From Microcoleus sp. (GTDB lineage Bacteria; Cyanobacteriota; Cyanobacteriia; Cyanobacteriales; Microcoleaceae), in NCBI GenBank assembly GCA_042408215.1, contig JAYFMW010000012.1:1-64000 (forward strand): a DNA stretch of 64,000 bases, in the 5' to 3' direction. The position numbers and the translations under genes are program-made. The notes under the pieces were generated by a model. It did no database searches. It worked only from the letters and a program-made list of their open reading frames with translations, and was not told where the DNA came from. Below are positions 29,634 to 40,705 of the stretch, piece by piece (position 1 is the stretch's first letter; each line of letters begins with the position of its first letter).

Positions 29634-30248
29634 ATGACAACAGATGCTTTGTTTGAACAACTAAAACACCCGAATCCTCATCTGCGCGATCGGGCGATGT
29701 TTGAAATTGCTGATTCCCGCGATGAAAATACAATTTCTCGACTGGTGGAAATTTTAGATGATCGAGATGTCACCTATCGTCGGGCGGCGGTGAAAGCCTT
29801 GGGTGCGATCGGTGAGGATGCGGTATCACCGGTGGTGGACGCATTGTTAAACAGTGAAAATGTGACTGTGCGAGGGAGTGCGGCGAAGGTATTGGCACAA
29901 ATTGCGATTAATTATCCAGATTTGCCTTTCCCAGAAGTGGGTTTGCAAGGATTAAAAAAGGCGATCGATGATGCTAATCCTGTGGTGCATATTGCAGCCG
30001 TGATGGCCTTGGGACAGATGGGTTCGTCTGCCTTTGAGATTTTGGTGGAGTCGCTGAATACAACGGATAATGTGGCGGTACAGGTGGCGATCGTGAGTGC
30101 TCTTGCTTCTGTGGGCGATCGACGTTGTGTAGAAGTTCTCACCACATTTGCCAACGATCAATCGGTGGATTCCTATGTGCGGGAATCAGCCACAAGTTCT
30201 TTATCACGGTTGGATTTGGTGATGAATTATAAGCGTGCAGATAGTTAG
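29634..30248 (+). CDS. cpeZ: Bilin lyase accessory subunit CpeZ
   Basis: LFEQLKHPNPHLR; DVTYRRAAVKALG; follows cpeY. Confidence 0.88.
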   Translation: MTTDALFEQLKHPNPHLRDRAMFEIADSRDENTISRLVEILDDRDVTYRRAAVKALGAIGEDAVSPVVDALLNSENVTVRGSAAKVLAQIAINYPDLPFPEVGLQGLKKAIDDANPVVHIAAVMALGQMGSSAFEILVESLNTTDNVAVQVAIVSALASVGDRRCVEVLTTFANDQSVDSYVRESATSSLSRLDLVMNYKRADS

Positions 30249-30311
30249 GTTTAGTGACATTTTTAGCACCCCTCTTGAGCCCACACAGCACTTGCAGCCG
30301 ACTAAGCGCGG

Positions 30312-30656
30312 TTAGATTTGACGCAATCTGTCGAGCTTTTTTAACTGTTGTGACTGTTCTTGCAATCGAGTTTCGAGACTCTCGCACACAAGTTCGCATA
30401 AATCAAAAATCATCGGGTCAGTGATTTGATAGTAAACACTGACTCCCTGCGGCTGCCGTTGAACGATGCCAGCCTGGGTCAAAATCTTGAGGTGCTTGGA
30501 AACATTGGCTTGCCCCAGCCCTGTTTCTTCAATGATTTCAGTGACATTTTTAGCACCACTCTTGAGCGCACACAGCACTTGCAGCCGACTAAGCTCCGAT
30601 AAAACCTTGAAGTAGTCAGCAACCTGAGCGAGAGCCGAAATCGGGATCTGAGACAT
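30312..30656 (-). CDS. ArsR/SmtB-family transcriptional regulator
   Basis: FKVLSELSRLQVL...GLGQANVSKHLKIL...FDLCELVC. Confidence 0.88.
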   Translation of the reverse strand: MSQIPISALAQVADYFKVLSELSRLQVLCALKSGAKNVTEIIEETGLGQANVSKHLKILTQAGIVQRQPQGVSVYYQITDPMIFDLCELVCESLETRLQEQSQQLKKLDRLRQI

Positions 30657-30772: not shown

Positions 30773-32098
30773 TGTAAAACTTCATTGACTTTATAGCCAT
30801 TAATAGCCATGTATAGTATAGTATAGTAAAAAATGACGGCAAAACAATGCAGCTAGTTGAAAAGCACATTATCGATCGAAACCACTGGCTATACAAGCAG
30901 CTAGATAATTTGTGCTTTCTTTCTAAGAATCTTTTCAACTACGCTAACTACCTGATTCGACAAAAATTTATCAGCTCAGGAGAATACCTCGACTATTACA
31001 AAATACAGAAACTATGTCAGGGAACGACTGACTATCTAGGATTACCAGCCAAAGTATCTCAGCAAGTATTATTGAGATTATATGAAAGCTGGAAATCATT
31101 TTTTGCAGCTACCAAGGAATATAACCTCCATCCAGATAAATTCAAAGCCAGACCCAAAATACCCAGATACAAACACAAAACATTAGGCAGAAATGTCCTG
31201 ACTTACACCGCTCAAGCCATCAGTAAAGAATGGCTCAAGAAAGGAATCATCAATCTCTCTTTGACCGACATATTTCTGACTACTAAAGTTAGCGAATTAA
31301 ATCAAGTCAGAATCGTTCCAAAAACTTACCATTACTCGATGGAGGTAGTTTATGAACCCAAGGATGTAACTCAATCATTATCAGGTGTTGAAGGGATAGC
31401 GGGGATTGATATTGGCCTAAATAACTTAGCGACAATTACATCCAATCAAAAAGGGTTTGTCCCGCTGATAATAAATGGCAAACCGCTCAAATCAATCAAT
31501 GCCTACTCTCACAAAAAGAAAGCAGACGTGCAGTCCTACTTGAAGGGGGAGAAAAAGACATCAATCAAAATTGAACAATTAACTCACAAGCGTAATGTAA
31601 AAGTAGATAATTACCTGCATAATGCAAGTCGATTCATCATCAATCATCTGGCAGCTAACCGAATCGGGACACTGGTGATTGGTAAAAACGATAACTGGAA
31701 ACAGGGAATAAATCTCGGCAAGCGGAATAATCAGAACTTCGTAGCAATACCTCATGCAAGGTTTATTGAAATGCTAACTTATAAAGCGCAATTAGCAGGA
31801 ATAGTTGTGAAGGTTATTGAAGAAAGTTACACTTCAAAGTGTTCTTTTTTAGATAATGAACCTTGTGTCAAGCATTCAGAGTACAAAGGTAAACGAATTA
31901 AGCGAGGTTTGTTTCGTGCTGGTGATGGCAGACCGATCAATGCGGATGTGAATGGCAGTGCTAACATTGTCAAAAAAGCATTTCCCAACGATGAAGCTGA
32001 GGGAATACAGGGCGTATTAGTACCTCCGGTAAGGGTCACACCTTACAAAATGGTTGCCCGAGGCAAGTGTAATATTTGCCTAGAAAACCTGTAACTAT
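30773..32098 (+). mobile_element. TnpB-only element (copy 2, same subfamily as copy 1)
   Basis: AGTAT|TGTAAAACTTCATT left end, CTGTAACTAT right end; boundaries inferred. Confidence 0.7.
30847..32094 (+). CDS. tnpB: RNA-guided endonuclease TnpB
   Basis: GIDIGLNN, IEESYTSK, INADVNGS. Confidence 0.92.
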   Translation: MQLVEKHIIDRNHWLYKQLDNLCFLSKNLFNYANYLIRQKFISSGEYLDYYKIQKLCQGTTDYLGLPAKVSQQVLLRLYESWKSFFAATKEYNLHPDKFKARPKIPRYKHKTLGRNVLTYTAQAISKEWLKKGIINLSLTDIFLTTKVSELNQVRIVPKTYHYSMEVVYEPKDVTQSLSGVEGIAGIDIGLNNLATITSNQKGFVPLIINGKPLKSINAYSHKKKADVQSYLKGEKKTSIKIEQLTHKRNVKVDNYLHNASRFIINHLAANRIGTLVIGKNDNWKQGINLGKRNNQNFVAIPHARFIEMLTYKAQLAGIVVKVIEESYTSKCSFLDNEPCVKHSEYKGKRIKRGLFRAGDGRPINADVNGSANIVKKAFPNDEAEGIQGVLVPPVRVTPYKMVARGKCNICLENL

Positions 32099-34584: not shown

Positions 34585-36099
34585 CTATAAAATCGATCGG
34601 GCGATGCTGAAGATGGTAGCAGCCAAACCTGCGGCGATCGGAATTGTCACTAGCCAAGCCGAACCAATGGAGAGCAAAGTTTGAAAACCTACAGATTTCC
34701 AACCTTTGACAATTCCGACTCCGACAACTGCACCGACTAAAGCGTGGGATGTCGAAACTGGCAAACCCAAGCGGGATGCTAGCAAGACAGTAGCAGCGGT
34801 GGCTAATTCAGCGCAAAATCCGCCACTGGGTTGCAGTTCAATTATGCCTTCGCCGACTGTAGCAATTACATTTTTGCCCCAGATGGACAAACCGACGACA
34901 ATTCCCACACCTCCGAGCACTAAAATCCACAGGGGAACGCTGAAATCTGATTGGGGAAAGGAACCTGTGCGGCGGATATAGGCGATCGCAGCGAGGGGAG
35001 CAACGGCATTACCGACGTCGTTGGAACCGTGGGCAAATGCCACAAAACAGGCACTTATGACTTGAAATCGCGCCATTTGTTGCTCGATGAGAGAGTGGGG
35101 GAGTGGGAGAGTGGGAGAGTGGGAGAGGGGGGGAGTGGGAGAGAGTGGGAGAGTGGGAGAGTGGGAGAGGGGGGGAGTGGGAGAGAGTGGGAGAGTGGGA
35201 GAGTGGGAGAGGGGGGGAGTGGGAGAGTTTGTACCTATTCCTTCTTCCTTGTTTGTACCCTGAGCGAAGTCGAAGGGCTTTCTTCCTTCTTCCTTCTTCC
35301 CTCTTCCTTCTTCCTTCTCCCCTGCTGAACTTTGTGAAGCATCTGCTAATTTTTTCCAGCTAATTTGGGTAAGGACGATCGCCCCAATACCCCCAATGCC
35401 AATCACAATATCGTGAACCGGAATATTCCACCCTAATCTATCCTGTACAAGGGCGATCGCTCCTGTCTGCACGAAGGCGACATCAACAACAGAGGGCAGT
35501 ACAATGATCCCAAATATGCTCAGCACTGCTGCACTCAGCCAAGGTATCCACTCGCGCATTTGATCTAAAGGATCAGGTCGATCGAGAATCGAATACTTTA
35601 CTAAACTGTAAAATAGGGAGGCCACAGCACCACTCGCTACCGGTGTCGCCAGCCAAGTTAGGGAAATAGTGCCGATAGTTGGCCAGTCAACAGCACCAAT
35701 TCCGGCGGCCACCCAGCTAAAACCCGCGATCGCGCCTACAACCGCATGGGACGAAGAAACCGGCAAACCCCGACGAGTAGCGATTTGCAGCCACAAGCCG
35801 CAAGCTATCAGCACTGACACCATCCCAATTAAAAATACTTGTGGCTGGGCTGCGAAGGCTTCTGCATTCACCACTCCTGTTGCCAGAGTTTCGGAAACTC
35901 CTTTGCCAAACAGCACCGCACCCGCAAACTCCAGTATGCCTGCAACAATTATTGCCTGCCGCAGCGTTAGCGCTTTTGAGCCTACGGATGTTCCCATCGA
36001 GTTAGCGACATCGTTAGCCCCCAAATTGGCAGCGACGTACAAGGCAAGTGCAGCAATCGCCGCCAGTTGCAGAAATTCGCCCCCAGAGGTATTTAACAT
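34585..36099 (-). CDS. pit: PiT-family inorganic phosphate transporter
   Basis: GANDVANSMG and AHGSNDVGNA signatures; start taken at ATG 36099. Confidence 0.9.
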   Translation of the reverse strand: MLNTSGGEFLQLAAIAALALYVAANLGANDVANSMGTSVGSKALTLRQAIIVAGILEFAGAVLFGKGVSETLATGVVNAEAFAAQPQVFLIGMVSVLIACGLWLQIATRRGLPVSSSHAVVGAIAGFSWVAAGIGAVDWPTIGTISLTWLATPVASGAVASLFYSLVKYSILDRPDPLDQMREWIPWLSAAVLSIFGIIVLPSVVDVAFVQTGAIALVQDRLGWNIPVHDIVIGIGGIGAIVLTQISWKKLADASQSSAGEKEEGRGKKEEGRKPFDFAQGTNKEEGIGTNSPTPPLSHSPTLPLSPTPPLSHSPTLPLSPTPPLSHSPTLPLPHSLIEQQMARFQVISACFVAFAHGSNDVGNAVAPLAAIAYIRRTGSFPQSDFSVPLWILVLGGVGIVVGLSIWGKNVIATVGEGIIELQPSGGFCAELATAATVLLASRLGLPVSTSHALVGAVVGVGIVKGWKSVGFQTLLSIGSAWLVTIPIAAGLAATIFSIARSIL

Positions 36100-36108
36100 A
36101 AATTTTTT

Positions 36109-36139
36109 TTGACATAAAACGGGCAGTTCGATATATGAT
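36109..36139 (+). promoter_or_regulatory. Possible sigma70 promoter for rplS, now upstream of the IscB-type element
   Basis: TTGACA (36109) and TATGAT (36134), 19-nt spacer. Confidence 0.4.
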
Positions 36140-36228
36140 AAGAGATTGTGAGTTTTAGTAAATCCCGTCAGTAACCCAGCCCTCTCATAGACTGGGCTTG
36201 TAAGATTAATCAAGCAAGCCATACTGAC

Positions 36229-36408
36229 CAAGAAACAGGGATACAAGCCCCGTCCTTCTAGGACGACTTTAAGCTAAAATTGAGAAAAGTCGGGATGGGG
36301 AATCGCCACGACTCTAAACGGGCGCAGAGACAGAGTAAGACTACTCCGGTAGCATCAGTCGGTGAAGCGTCAAGAATCACCGCACCGACCGGGCGGTGAG
36401 TATTTCAA
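36229..36408 (+). mobile_element. 180-bp IS605-type mini-element (left end plus TnpB omegaRNA/right end, no ORF)
   Basis: Left end CAAGAAACAGGGATACAAGCCCCGTCCTTCTAGGACG; right end AAGAATCACCGC...GCGGTGAGTATTTCAA; inserted 3' of TGAC with no duplication. Confidence 0.75.
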
Positions 36409-36434
36409 CAGACAACCTAGTAATAGGTAGTCGT

Positions 36435-36764
36435 CCCAAGGGTTGATTAACAGTAAGACTTTTTCTGACATTTGCTAACAATCACTTACATTTGCCCGAG
36501 GTCTTTATGGCACTGTAGAATGAATTTAGCCACTCGGATTTAGGTGAAAAACCTTGGTAGTAAGCAACCTCTATCTAAATAAGTTGCCTCTACAGTATCA
36601 AAGCAAATAAAATCAAGATTGGCTAAATGCGGTCACGGGAAAACCAAGCTGAACGCTCATAGTACAAGTGCTTGTAGAGATTTCTACGGGCATTGGTTGA
36701 TACGCCTTAGTTGAGAACTGAGCTCAACTTATGTATTTGTTAGCAAACGTTAGCAAAAAAGGAT
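36435..36764. mobile_element. ~330-bp MITE-like insert with imperfect terminal inverted repeats
   Basis: TTTTCTGACATTTGCTAACAA (36461-36481) vs TTGTTAGCAAACGTTAGCAAAAA (36737-36759). Confidence 0.55.
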
Positions 36765-37155
36765 CGGTCACGACACCTCGGAATGCGACGCTAGTTCCCC
36801 GTTCTGTCGCTTGTGATTAAACAGTTTTAAGGTCACTGAAACAGTTTTGCAAGCCGGCGCAAGCCCAGATAACCAGGTCGAAGCGAACATTACCCCTCTG
36901 AGGGAGGCTCAATTGAGCAAACCGTTATGCGTACAGGATTGTGAGATTTGAAGTGAGAATTGCGATGCACCCTCGCGTAGCCGAGTCCCACTTTCATTGC
37001 ATTACACTCATCACACCGAATCCAGCAATCCTCGTGTAATGGAGAAAACATTCAAGGCGGTTAAAACCGCACGTGCGATGCCCTTCCTCGTAGTCGAAGG
37101 GTCGTTTCCCTCTCAGGTCTAAAGACTCTGAGTTTCCCACTTACCGAGTTTAGTT

Positions 37156-37539
37156 ATGAAAGGCGCAGAAATAATCCGCTCTCTTGAGACGGAAGAAATA
37201 GAGAGAGTCAAGGTAGAACTCAGCAAAGTGCTCCCCGAAATTTACGTCGGCGACACTGTGCGAGTCGGTGTGAAAATTAAAGAGGGCAACAAAGAACGGG
37301 TTCAGCCCTACGAAGGCACTGTGATTGCCATGCGTAACGGCGGAATTAATGAAACTATCACTGTTCGCCGTGTGTTTCAGGGCGTCGGTGTGGAACGGGT
37401 GTTTTTGATTCACTCGCCCCGCATTGCCACTATCCAAGTGATGCGACGCGGGAAAGTCCGCAGAGCAAAACTGTACTACCTGCGCGATCGGATTGGCAAA
37501 GCCACCCGCGTCAAACAGCGGTTCGATCGAGCTCTGTAG
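37156..37539 (+). CDS. rplS: 50S ribosomal protein L19
   Basis: [38 protein letters not shown]. Confidence 0.97.
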
Positions 37540-37670
37540 GAATGCACCCAGGCTATGCCTCATGGGGAAATTGGAAATTGAGAAATTTCCCAAAAAAATT
37601 TCCTATTTACGAGCGCACTGTGTTAGAATAGAAATCTAGAGGTTAAGCAACTCTTTGCAACCTCACCTGT

Positions 37671-37743
37671 GCGCTCTTAGTTCAGTTGGTAGAACGCAGG
37701 TCTCCAAAACCTGATGTCGGGGGTTCAAGTCCTCCAGGGCGCG
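37671..37743 (+). tRNA. trnW: tRNA-Trp (CCA)
   Basis: GCGCTCTTAGTTCAGTTGGTAGAACGCAGGTCTCCAAAACCTGATGTCGGGGGTTCAAGTCCTCCAGGGCGCG cloverleaf; upstream of secE. Confidence 0.96.
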
Positions 37744-38095
37744 CTGAATCACCAAAACTTAAATTCTGCCCGAAAGCGCCCGGATTATTGGCCCACAGCA
37801 GCCAAAACCGCAAGCTTTCGGGTATAATTAGTTTTTGGGGATGGTTCAATTTTTTGTCAAAGAGAAGCCACCAACAAATTCTCGATGTGGCATCTCGATT
37901 CTCGGTATCTTGATGATCAGTACCGTCGATCGCTTGTTGACACTCGGATGGGTTGGGCTTGTAAAGTGGTTGCTTTGGATTTAAGATTTAGAATTGCGCC
38001 GGAGTGGTTAGTGTCAAAAAATCTGAGCCCCGCTCGCCACTCACACAATCTCAAATCTCAAATCTCAAATCTTAAATCGCAAGGGGGATTCAATT

Positions 38096-40465: not shown

Positions 40466-40514
40466 AAAGAATACTAATTTCTGTCTGCTCGTCATAGCCT
40501 AATTCAAAATCAAT

Positions 40515-40663
40515 AAGCTGAAGACCGCAGGTGCCGATCGCGCTTAATTTCCTGCCGAGGCTGAAGAACTAAAAACTCAAGACTAAAGATTAAAAATTTT
40601 CGATTTTTAATTCTGAATTCTTAACTTTTAATTCTCTGCCCCGGCTCGAAGGTCGGGGTTTTT
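40515..40663 (+). promoter_or_regulatory. L10 leader with attenuator-like hairpin
   Basis: GAAGACCGCAGG...TTAATTTCCTGCCGAGG; CCCCGGCTCGAAGGTCGGGGTTTTT upstream of rplJ. Confidence 0.7.
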
Positions 40664-40705
40664 GATGGTCAGTTTTCGATCATCCTTAAAGGAGGTGAAA
40701 TAAGT

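Follow-up and report, generated by a model that had tools for sequence, protein, structure and literature searches.

The rplS locus and its element

The window analyzed here is a 64,000-nt stretch of contig JAYFMW010000012.1 from Microcoleus sp. (assembly GCA_042408215.1), part of a 7.36-Mb genome in 30 contigs. Immediately before rplS, the gene for ribosomal protein L19, it carries a 989-bp element (36167-37155) that ends directly against the rplS start codon. It is virtually certain that this is an IscB/HEARO element of the IS200/IS605 family that lacks an open reading frame (ORF) and is precisely bounded on the start codon. Its parts and flanks are listed below by their positions in the window.

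34585-36099, minus strand: putative Pit-family phosphate transporter gene, the divergent neighbor; likely ATG at 36099-36097 (ORF list; family assigned by reading of the sequence)
36109-36114, plus strand: TTGACA, a doubtful -35-like hexamer with a 19-nt spacer (sequence only)
36134-36139, plus strand: TATGAT, -10 hexamer of the likely native rplS promoter; its position before rplS is conserved across cyanobacteria
36145-36166, plus strand: native rplS leader of about 21 nt, at the guide position; start site predicted from the -10 hexamer, guide position after excerpts of PMC9640706 and 10.1101/2023.03.14.532601
36167-36228, plus strand: piece 1 of the omegaRNA/HEARO scaffold, with the first stem and the element end (from sister-copy 5' ends)
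36229-36408, plus strand: nested insert 1, a 180-bp ORF-less IS200/IS605 TnpB-type element, after TGAC and with a right end in TTTCAA
36409-36443, plus strand: omegaRNA scaffold piece 2 (sister-copy comparison)
36444-36768 (about), plus strand: nested insert 2, an ORF-less IS607-type element of about 325 bp with GG(T) at both junctions
36769-36893, plus strand: omegaRNA scaffold piece 3 (Rfam RF02033 and sister profile)
36894-37103, plus strand: noncoding tail in place of iscB, with a long hairpin (about 36924-37040), a short hairpin, and two short repeats of 23 to 26 bp
37104-37155, plus strand: IS200/IS605 left end with a subterminal hairpin, directly preceding the rplS start codon
37156-37159, plus strand: target tetramer ATGA (reverse complement, TCAT), the rplS start codon plus one base and the putative target-adjacent motif (TAM)
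37156-37539, plus strand: rplS, ribosomal protein L19, intact (ORF list, Pfam Ribosomal_L19, TIGR01024)

A preliminary description of this DNA had placed the beginning of a HEARO-like scaffold at 36167 and the end of the element at 37155, and both limits hold. On the 5' side, 36167-36230 aligns with the 5' ends of sister copies, all of which read GT(C/T)(A/T) in register. On the other side, the last 52 nt are a hairpin left end common to sister copies, and ATGA comes after 49 of the 51 ends of this left-end type that the genome contains; the left-end profile was seeded with ATGA-flanked ends, and plain BLAST with a query lacking ATGA agrees. The insertion lies at N/ATGA without target duplication and leaves the rplS ORF intact, rplS itself having one match only in the whole genome. 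The scaffold is recognized by the Rfam model RF02033 at 36706-36893 (63.7 bits; E = 2.9e-12), so that its recognition as a HEARO RNA stands by E value, but the inserts interrupt the RNA and keep the score under the gathering cutoff of 83, and no HEARO match is found in the window at that threshold.

By BLAST, the element consists of three homologous blocks with two unrelated repeats between them. Without these inserts, the scaffold is 223 nt long, covers profile positions 1 to 217, scores 115 bits (intact copies: median, 146; 5th percentile, 108), and is 82% identical to the nearest sister copy; this sequence was joined by script and scored with a sequence profile built from other copies, not with a covariance model. 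Insert 1 has a 96.7% copy with other flanks at C6:580412, and its right end is common to tnpB elements. Insert 2 has four copies (97.5 to 98.8%), also with other flanks, and shares its 3' end with elements that carry tnpB behind a serine-recombinase-like ORF (recognized by eye). The junction core of the IS607 family is GG (excerpt of PMC13565253). Insert 2 has this core together with the ends of serine-recombinase/tnpB elements, as an IS607 derivative would; it resembles the family in its GG junctions, in the lack of further duplication, and in its tnpB-element right end, differing in that it is ORF-less and about 325 bp long. An Rfam search of both inserts gave no match. As the inserts have near-identical copies and the host element has none above about 82%, the inserts are the younger.

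The host element has the traits of a nonautonomous ISC element or palindrome-associated transposable element (PATE): a scaffold at one end, a hairpin at the other as in TnpA-encoding elements, a fixed target tetramer without duplication, dispersed copies, and no protein of its own. By consensus matches only, the region contains five promoter-like sites, where 1.7 are expected, three of them on the plus strand inside insert 2, as well as a weak terminator-like hairpin at 36709-36729.

Three further observations concern the ends and targets. The element end at 37145-37155 reads GAGTTTAGTT, where most sisters end in a T run; GAGTTTAGTT resembles GAGTTTTAGT of the native leader (36150-36159), by chance or convergence. 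Left ends of type B number well over 100 in the genome and adjoin various targets (ATGA, ATAA, GTAA, GTCA, GTGA, and ATCG). Finally, the TGAC at which insert 1 entered belongs to the first stem of the HEARO RNA and is a conserved motif in the scaffolds of sister copies; elements with an omegaRNA therefore carry a ready target for insertion by a second family.

A noncoding hairpin in place of iscB

The tail had been read as an iscB ORF reduced to ATGCGT plus a C-terminal stub (KAVKTAR...SFPSQV). We reject this reading. In a full-length sister (C3:407065), the IscB frame ends in YSYLF, and the KAVKTAR...SFPSQV sequence comes after the stop codon. The best tblastn match of the sister IscB against the element has an E value of 0.84, none of the 43 IscB-like peptides of the genome matches the element at E < 0.05, and Pfam finds nothing in its 41-aa frame. 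The iscB ORF of a full ISC element, with RRXRR, RuvC, and HNH domains, is absent from the element and occurs only in trans.

The ATGCGT of the supposed start lies in one arm of a conserved noncoding hairpin. This long hairpin (36924-37040) folds with a z score of -3.08 (0 of 200 shuffles) and is common to ORF-less copies of two other families. An alignment of six sequences has 94.5% paired cells, with a compensatory change in 8 of the 34 pairs, more than in all 500 shuffles and all slid controls. The compensatory changes are suggestive only of a conserved hairpin, the structure having been derived from the same small alignment of related sequences. A long hairpin replaces iscB in a subset of ORF-less copies in three families (L093, L095, L097, L098, and L006), and part of it also occurs in about 14 further copies in this genome.

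The empty site and recurrent insertion at rplS

Excision of 36167-37155 had been predicted to restore a plausible native leader, and the relatives bear this out. The gap between the transporter gene and rplS is 1,056 nt here versus 62 to 68 nt in 21 of 24 relatives, the extra 989 bp being 36167-37155. The empty allele, with the leader running straight into the rplS start, is present in 22 of the 24 other genus genomes. In a wider search, 73 of 79 genus genomes were empty and 6 were filled, all at exactly this junction. The rplS sequence itself is nearest to Microcoleus and Tychonema records.

The filled rplS scaffolds form four groups, namely, this copy; those of genomes G017, G166, and G176 with a metagenome locus, L242 (94 to 99% alike); that of G145; and that of G023. 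Identity between groups is 66 to 79%. In a tree of these scaffolds, four changes are required by the supported branches, and a single change is compatible with 0% of 200 bootstrap trees (the bootstrap being not fully settled). The filled alleles thus appear, from these scaffold sequences, to stem from at least four independent insertions. Outside this family, genome G034 has a HEARO element at the same rplS start, and an Iphinoe record (L225) has a bare left end there. Among 146 rplS loci with at least 300 nt upstream, three carry an element or an end (L166, apparently G023; L242; and L225). In G017 and G166, 19 nt of the leader have been lost, comprising the guide and the conserved GATTGTGAGTTTT motif described below.

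The native leader as putative guide

The -10 hexamer of rplS is positionally conserved across cyanobacteria. Bacterial transcription starts 6 to 7 nt after the -10 hexamer, which predicts an rplS leader of 20 to 22 nt. The TTGACA/TATGAT promoter of the preliminary description is upheld as far as both hexamers are present and the -10 is conserved; on the other side, the spacer is 19 nt, the pair is not called by a promoter consensus scan, and the -35 varies among relatives. Just after the -10, at 36144-36156, lies a conserved GATTGTGAGTTTT motif, the core of which is found in 44 of 80 rplS loci (L161 to L240) across cyanobacteria. It matches no Rfam family and may be an undescribed regulatory or initiation signal.

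At about 21 nt, the predicted leader would have the length of a guide; as had been proposed, it matches the empty allele, where ATGA comes next. The guide of an IscB lies 5' of the scaffold and outside the element, so that transcription must start outside (excerpt of 10.1101/2023.03.14.532601); 16 nt suffice for one IscB (excerpt of PMC9640706), and one HEARO enzyme prefers a 24-nt guide (excerpt of PMC9755519). We found no second genomic site with at least 9 seed matches plus ATGA. ATGA is presumably the cleavage TAM of this IscB. The further claim that the rplS promoter yields a working guide plus omegaRNA is weakened, as the scaffold, contiguous in an active OMEGA guide, is here broken up by inserts of 180 and about 325 bp. 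To judge from the arrangement of the sequences, this copy is most likely disarmed as a guide, its scaffold broken by two younger mini-elements.

The genome also encodes machinery that could act in trans. The IscB domain PF14239 has 31 matches in the genome, many in long open frames, and the intact iscB that had been anticipated elsewhere exists: the IscB genes at L049 and L052 encode RRXRR and HNH domains and belong to elements with the same left end as the rplS element. The L049 protein has the catalytic motifs, and its scaffold falls into one supported clade (96/92) with the rplS scaffold. PF01797 has 20 matches, with tnpA inside elements that have a related left end followed by ATGA.

Of 23 sequencing runs listed, 19 contain part of the stretch, 8 of those being RNA. 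We compared three RNA runs and one DNA run as contigs, which give no strand, start, or level and drop rare forms. The element sequence, the nested junctions, and the rplS junction are present unspliced in RNA-library contigs: those of run X8 cover 36297-36897 (three nested junctions), 36870-37133, and 37119-37800 (the element-rplS junction), and the nested junctions are also bridged in X16, from a separate study. The RNA contigs cover the body of the element and not its 5' end (none over 35900-36219 in X8 and X16); the 5' element junction is bridged by a contig of the DNA run. No contig in the four runs skips the element.

HEARO elements are enriched at start codons

The genome contains 70 HEARO matches, 64 of them over the cutoff, and 58 have an ATGA-flanked end; by four end profiles, the 12 left out comprise 11 with no end and 1 with an unrelated end. 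Of the 58 elements, 36 lie on called starts by a strict count; a lenient count, which also admits petL, petM, and three coding frames whose called start differs, gives 41. As a baseline, 2,441 of 50,012 ATGA sites (4.9%) are at or near starts, a proportion that rises to 15.2% among the 16,079 ORF-sparing sites (binomial P = 6e-16 for the excess); after matching of the next two bases, 11.4 of 58 are expected on starts. Start codons are occupied at about four times the frequency predicted from ORF-sparing ATGA sites. The earlier expectation that sister copies precede ATGA and are enriched at start codons is therefore borne out. In two of the 41 start-codon cases, an in-frame ATG lies farther upstream, so that the element may be close to the start instead of on it. 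Among the HEARO matches without an ATGA-flanked IS605-type end, several have iscB (C5:441871, C21:57733, C7:93727, and C14:56949 are matches of this kind).

The targets include housekeeping genes. A profile scan of 42 frames named rpsP, elongation factor G (fusA), chlB, psb27, petL, petM, and pntA, as well as DAHP synthase, speA, signal peptidase I, pilT, pcxA, cobH, sucD, and an ammonium transporter. For all four genes compared with relatives, exact empty starts were found (rpsP, 3 of 3 loci; chlB, 5 of 5; aroF, 4 of 5; pntA, 4 of 4), and the fifth aroF locus shares the element. In other families, we took 60 loci in 14 genomes from the top-scoring 150 of 470 matches and counted 52, the other 8 having no callable end; of the 36 ATGA-ended copies among those counted, 22 lead into a coding frame.

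The sites do not stand out by their translation signals. The native leaders of the 41 targets and those of 2,054 other ATGA-start genes show no difference in ribosome-binding sites (P = 0.18), and predicted start-codon accessibility is equal in empty and filled alleles (rplS, 0.52 versus 0.48; P = 0.40 over 41). A Shine-Dalgarno-like stretch (-5 kcal/mol or stronger) is present in 9 of 9 left ends of types C and D and in 2 of 32 of types A and B. The rplS element has a type A end, so the idea that it supplies the signals rplS depends on is, for the ribosome-binding site, not supported. Orientation of the upstream gene was uninformative (25 of 41 and 11 of 17 co-oriented).

Some further start-codon sites were noted. 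Remnants consisting of a left end or a tail only lie on start codons at C6:923549 (a frame that is hisG-like by eye), C14:104257, C30:395190, and L225, which suggests a final stage that preserves nothing of the element but the new leader. The start of a DUF1816 gene has been hit by HEARO elements in two families (C5:370163 and L119), and one gene start has been hit by two TnpB-type elements in different genomes (C17:93153 and L346). An IscB element with an open frame lies on the sucD start at C20:209296 and in two relatives (L407 and L408), either inherited or recurrent.

Comparison with TnpB-type elements

TnpB-type elements need no outside promoter (excerpt of 10.1101/2023.03.14.532601), and those with the same target provide a control. 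In the other genus genomes, we compared full-length ORF-bearing elements only, drawn from 29 + 29 + 29 loci; left out were 10 loci with no end, 3 that were too short, 2 with another target, 2 undecided, and 6 duplicates. IscB elements lie on starts in 15 of 23 cases versus 11 of 41 for TnpB elements (Fisher P = 0.004). In the genome studied here, the counts are 36 to 41 of 58 for HEARO and 4 to 5 of 18 for TnpB-type elements (P = 0.002 to 0.006). The contrast favors a role for host-driven guide production, although loss of TnpB copies through opposing transcription or entrenchment with age remains compatible with it.

Other features of the window

The transporter ORF contains in-frame short tandem repeats at 35090-35330, with PTPPLSHSPTLPLS-like and KEEGRGKK-like runs and 27 to 85 gap positions in alignments to relatives. 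A 415-aa TnpB-like ORF at 30847-32094 served as a search seed, and just before it, at 30139-30656, lie two overlapping ArsR-like frames with a duplicated stretch (recognized by eye). Ordinary features are an L10 leader (RF00557) at 40500-40673 and a tRNA at 37671-37743 whose anticodon, by inspection of the sequence, is CCA (Trp).

Origin of the start-codon pattern

The start-codon niche of the IscB family is well supported as a pattern. As to its cause, we lean, with somewhat better than even confidence, toward tolerance of the insertions plus a host-driven guide and homing, with the rplS copy likely disarmed by its two inserts. At rplS, a TnpA encoded elsewhere, acting on the related left end and the same target, would have inserted the element, an expectation that draws on knowledge of the family. 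Insertion at N/ATGA left the native promoter and leader upstream and the rplS ORF whole. Transcription from the rplS promoter, starting about 21 nt upstream, would at first have yielded leader (guide) plus scaffold; with this guide RNA, an IscB made in trans would cleave empty alleles, whether on a sister chromosome or left behind by excision, and repair would copy the element back. The 180-bp and 325-bp elements that later entered the scaffold would have abolished guiding. At present, rplS may be expressed from a leader of about 1 kb, the last bases of which are the U-rich end of the element, or insert 2 may supply the promoter. More generally, start-codon sites would spare the gene and supply an outside promoter for the guide, so that such copies would be restored and kept.

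A more far-reaching version, which we offer tentatively and with clearly less than even confidence, is that host start codons are the niche of cyanobacterial IscB elements: the ATGA TAM would make a short leader a guide, the host promoter would drive it, and IscB in trans would spread the element through all chromosome copies, even of essential genes. Hosts would disarm the RNA, by nested insertions or by guide loss as in G017 and G166, yet keep the end as a leader, so that core-gene leaders would be repeatedly rewritten.

Several observations weigh against a host-driven guide with homing. Genes were taken from our own codon-model caller (5,794 genes) rather than a standard one. The number of further events at rplS, 3 among 78 genomes, is not clearly above what a per-gene occupancy of 1 to 2% would give (Poisson P, 0.04 to 0.21); a special hotspot at rplS, which we also considered, is thus not established. 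GTGA-ended copies of other families are little enriched, with 3 of 16 opening a coding frame. Targets show no codon-bias excess (35 versus 2,021 ATGA-start genes; P = 0.80), and the earlier claim that they are well expressed finds no backing in this proxy, a weak one that ranks rplS itself as average. The TnpB control in the same genome is confounded by age, the TnpB copies being younger: among copies with a near-identical sister, 8 of 15 HEARO and 4 of 14 TnpB elements lie on starts, compared with 33 of 43 and 1 of 4 among older copies, and part of the pattern may stem from retention with age. TnpB elements in the other genomes are themselves slightly above baseline (11 of 41; 27% versus 15%; P = 0.04), and the genomes of one genus are not independent, so the P values are too small. 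Finally, the RNA-library contigs carry no strand and may reflect DNA carry-over.

The age trend leads to the most serious rival, in which TnpA inserts at any ATGA, in-gene copies are purged, intergenic copies decay or are freely deleted, and copies between a promoter and a start codon accumulate with age because imprecise deletion would harm the gene, the guide being irrelevant. The higher proportion on starts among older HEARO copies is what such entrenchment predicts, as are the end-only remnants that persist at starts (C6:923549 and L225) and the persistence of three of the six filled rplS alleles that look disarmed (this one, G017, and G166). We nevertheless consider it unlikely as the whole explanation, since full-length ORF-bearing IscB and TnpB elements still differ, young HEARO copies are already above the 15% baseline, and the difference between young and old HEARO copies is not significant (P = 0.11). 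A preference of the transposase itself for ATGA near gene starts, for instance, in single-stranded DNA at active promoters, combined with purging of TnpB copies that silence the host gene while IscB copies are read through harmlessly, would account for the slight enrichment of TnpB elements, and it fits the orientation of tnpB opposite to the host gene and the independent hits of different elements on the same genes (rplS and, in two families, the DUF1816 gene). This is improbable in our estimate: the targets lack a codon-bias excess, GTGA-target copies are not enriched, and the data here bear on TnpA site choice only as far as the tetramer. The preliminary description had likewise taken the targeting of start codons as an insertion preference, which is not the sole fit because retention after insertion fits equally well.

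Very improbable, lastly, is that the host has taken over the element as a regulatory leader or that it is spliced from rplS mRNA in the manner of an IStron. The element is structured and appears in RNA-library contigs of two studies, and one allele is 94 to 99% alike in three genomes and a metagenome contig. Against takeover, only 6 of 79 genus genomes have an element, with at least four different ones among them, and the scaffold is broken by later insertions; against splicing, no contig of the four runs (contigs only) skips the element. An Rfam search of the region finds no intron or riboswitch. Host-driven guiding with tolerance remains the reading that we favor.

Relation to known elements

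Earlier publications describe the element class, its ATGA target, and its dependence on transcription by the host. HEARO RNA is said to have been described by Weinberg et al. in 2009, with ATGA/GTGA integration sites reportedly noted at that time. The rplS scaffold matches its model, RF02033, but has no HNH ORF downstream and a conserved noncoding hairpin tail instead. IStrons are IS605 or IS607 elements with a group I intron; like the rplS element, they are RNA-guided elements that live in important genes, but no intron or spliced form is seen here, and the host ORF stays whole because of where the element lies.

Cyanobacterial ISC and IS605B elements with an N/ATGA target, e.g., ISC1-1_MA and IS605B-1_MA of Microcystis aeruginosa, have been reported (excerpt of PMC4810608, which, like that of PMC13565253, also names IStrons). 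As here, they include nonautonomous copies with a 5'-GT end and a hairpin 3' end inserted before ATGA without duplication, and ends and target are common to IscB-type and oppositely oriented TnpB-type elements; unlike ISC1-1_MA, the rplS copy has no ORF. The term "start codon" does not occur in the main text of PMC4810608, which therefore does not treat the overlap between target and start codons under that name. In Geobacillus stearothermophilus, IscB elements show a bias toward co-oriented upstream genes that is absent in TnpB (Meers et al.; excerpt of 10.1101/2023.03.14.532601). The same excerpt gives the TAM as TTCAT (ATGAA on the other strand), equal to the insertion motif, and describes protein-less PATEs with omegaRNAs and cutting of the empty allele. 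The rplS element is like those PATEs in being protein-less and omegaRNA-bearing with its guide outside, and differs in that nested elements split its scaffold. Whereas that work measured the orientation of upstream genes, the elements here occupy the leader of a downstream gene and abut its start codon, in some cases that of a single-copy housekeeping gene. Neither the start-codon enrichment nor the contrast between IscB and TnpB was found in the literature at the level of titles and abstracts; Weinberg 2009, Altae-Tran 2021, or supplements may mention start codons.

The pattern offers a concrete and countable answer to where IscB elements, which are unable to make a guide transcript by themselves, get theirs. 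TnpB elements sharing the target form a natural control that helps to separate selection from transposase preference. In one genome, dozens of genes, among them rplS, rpsP, fusA, petL, petM, chlB, and pntA, have leaders replaced by transposon ends. Such leader replacement bears on translation initiation in cyanobacteria and on the choice of insertion sites for RNA-guided tools.

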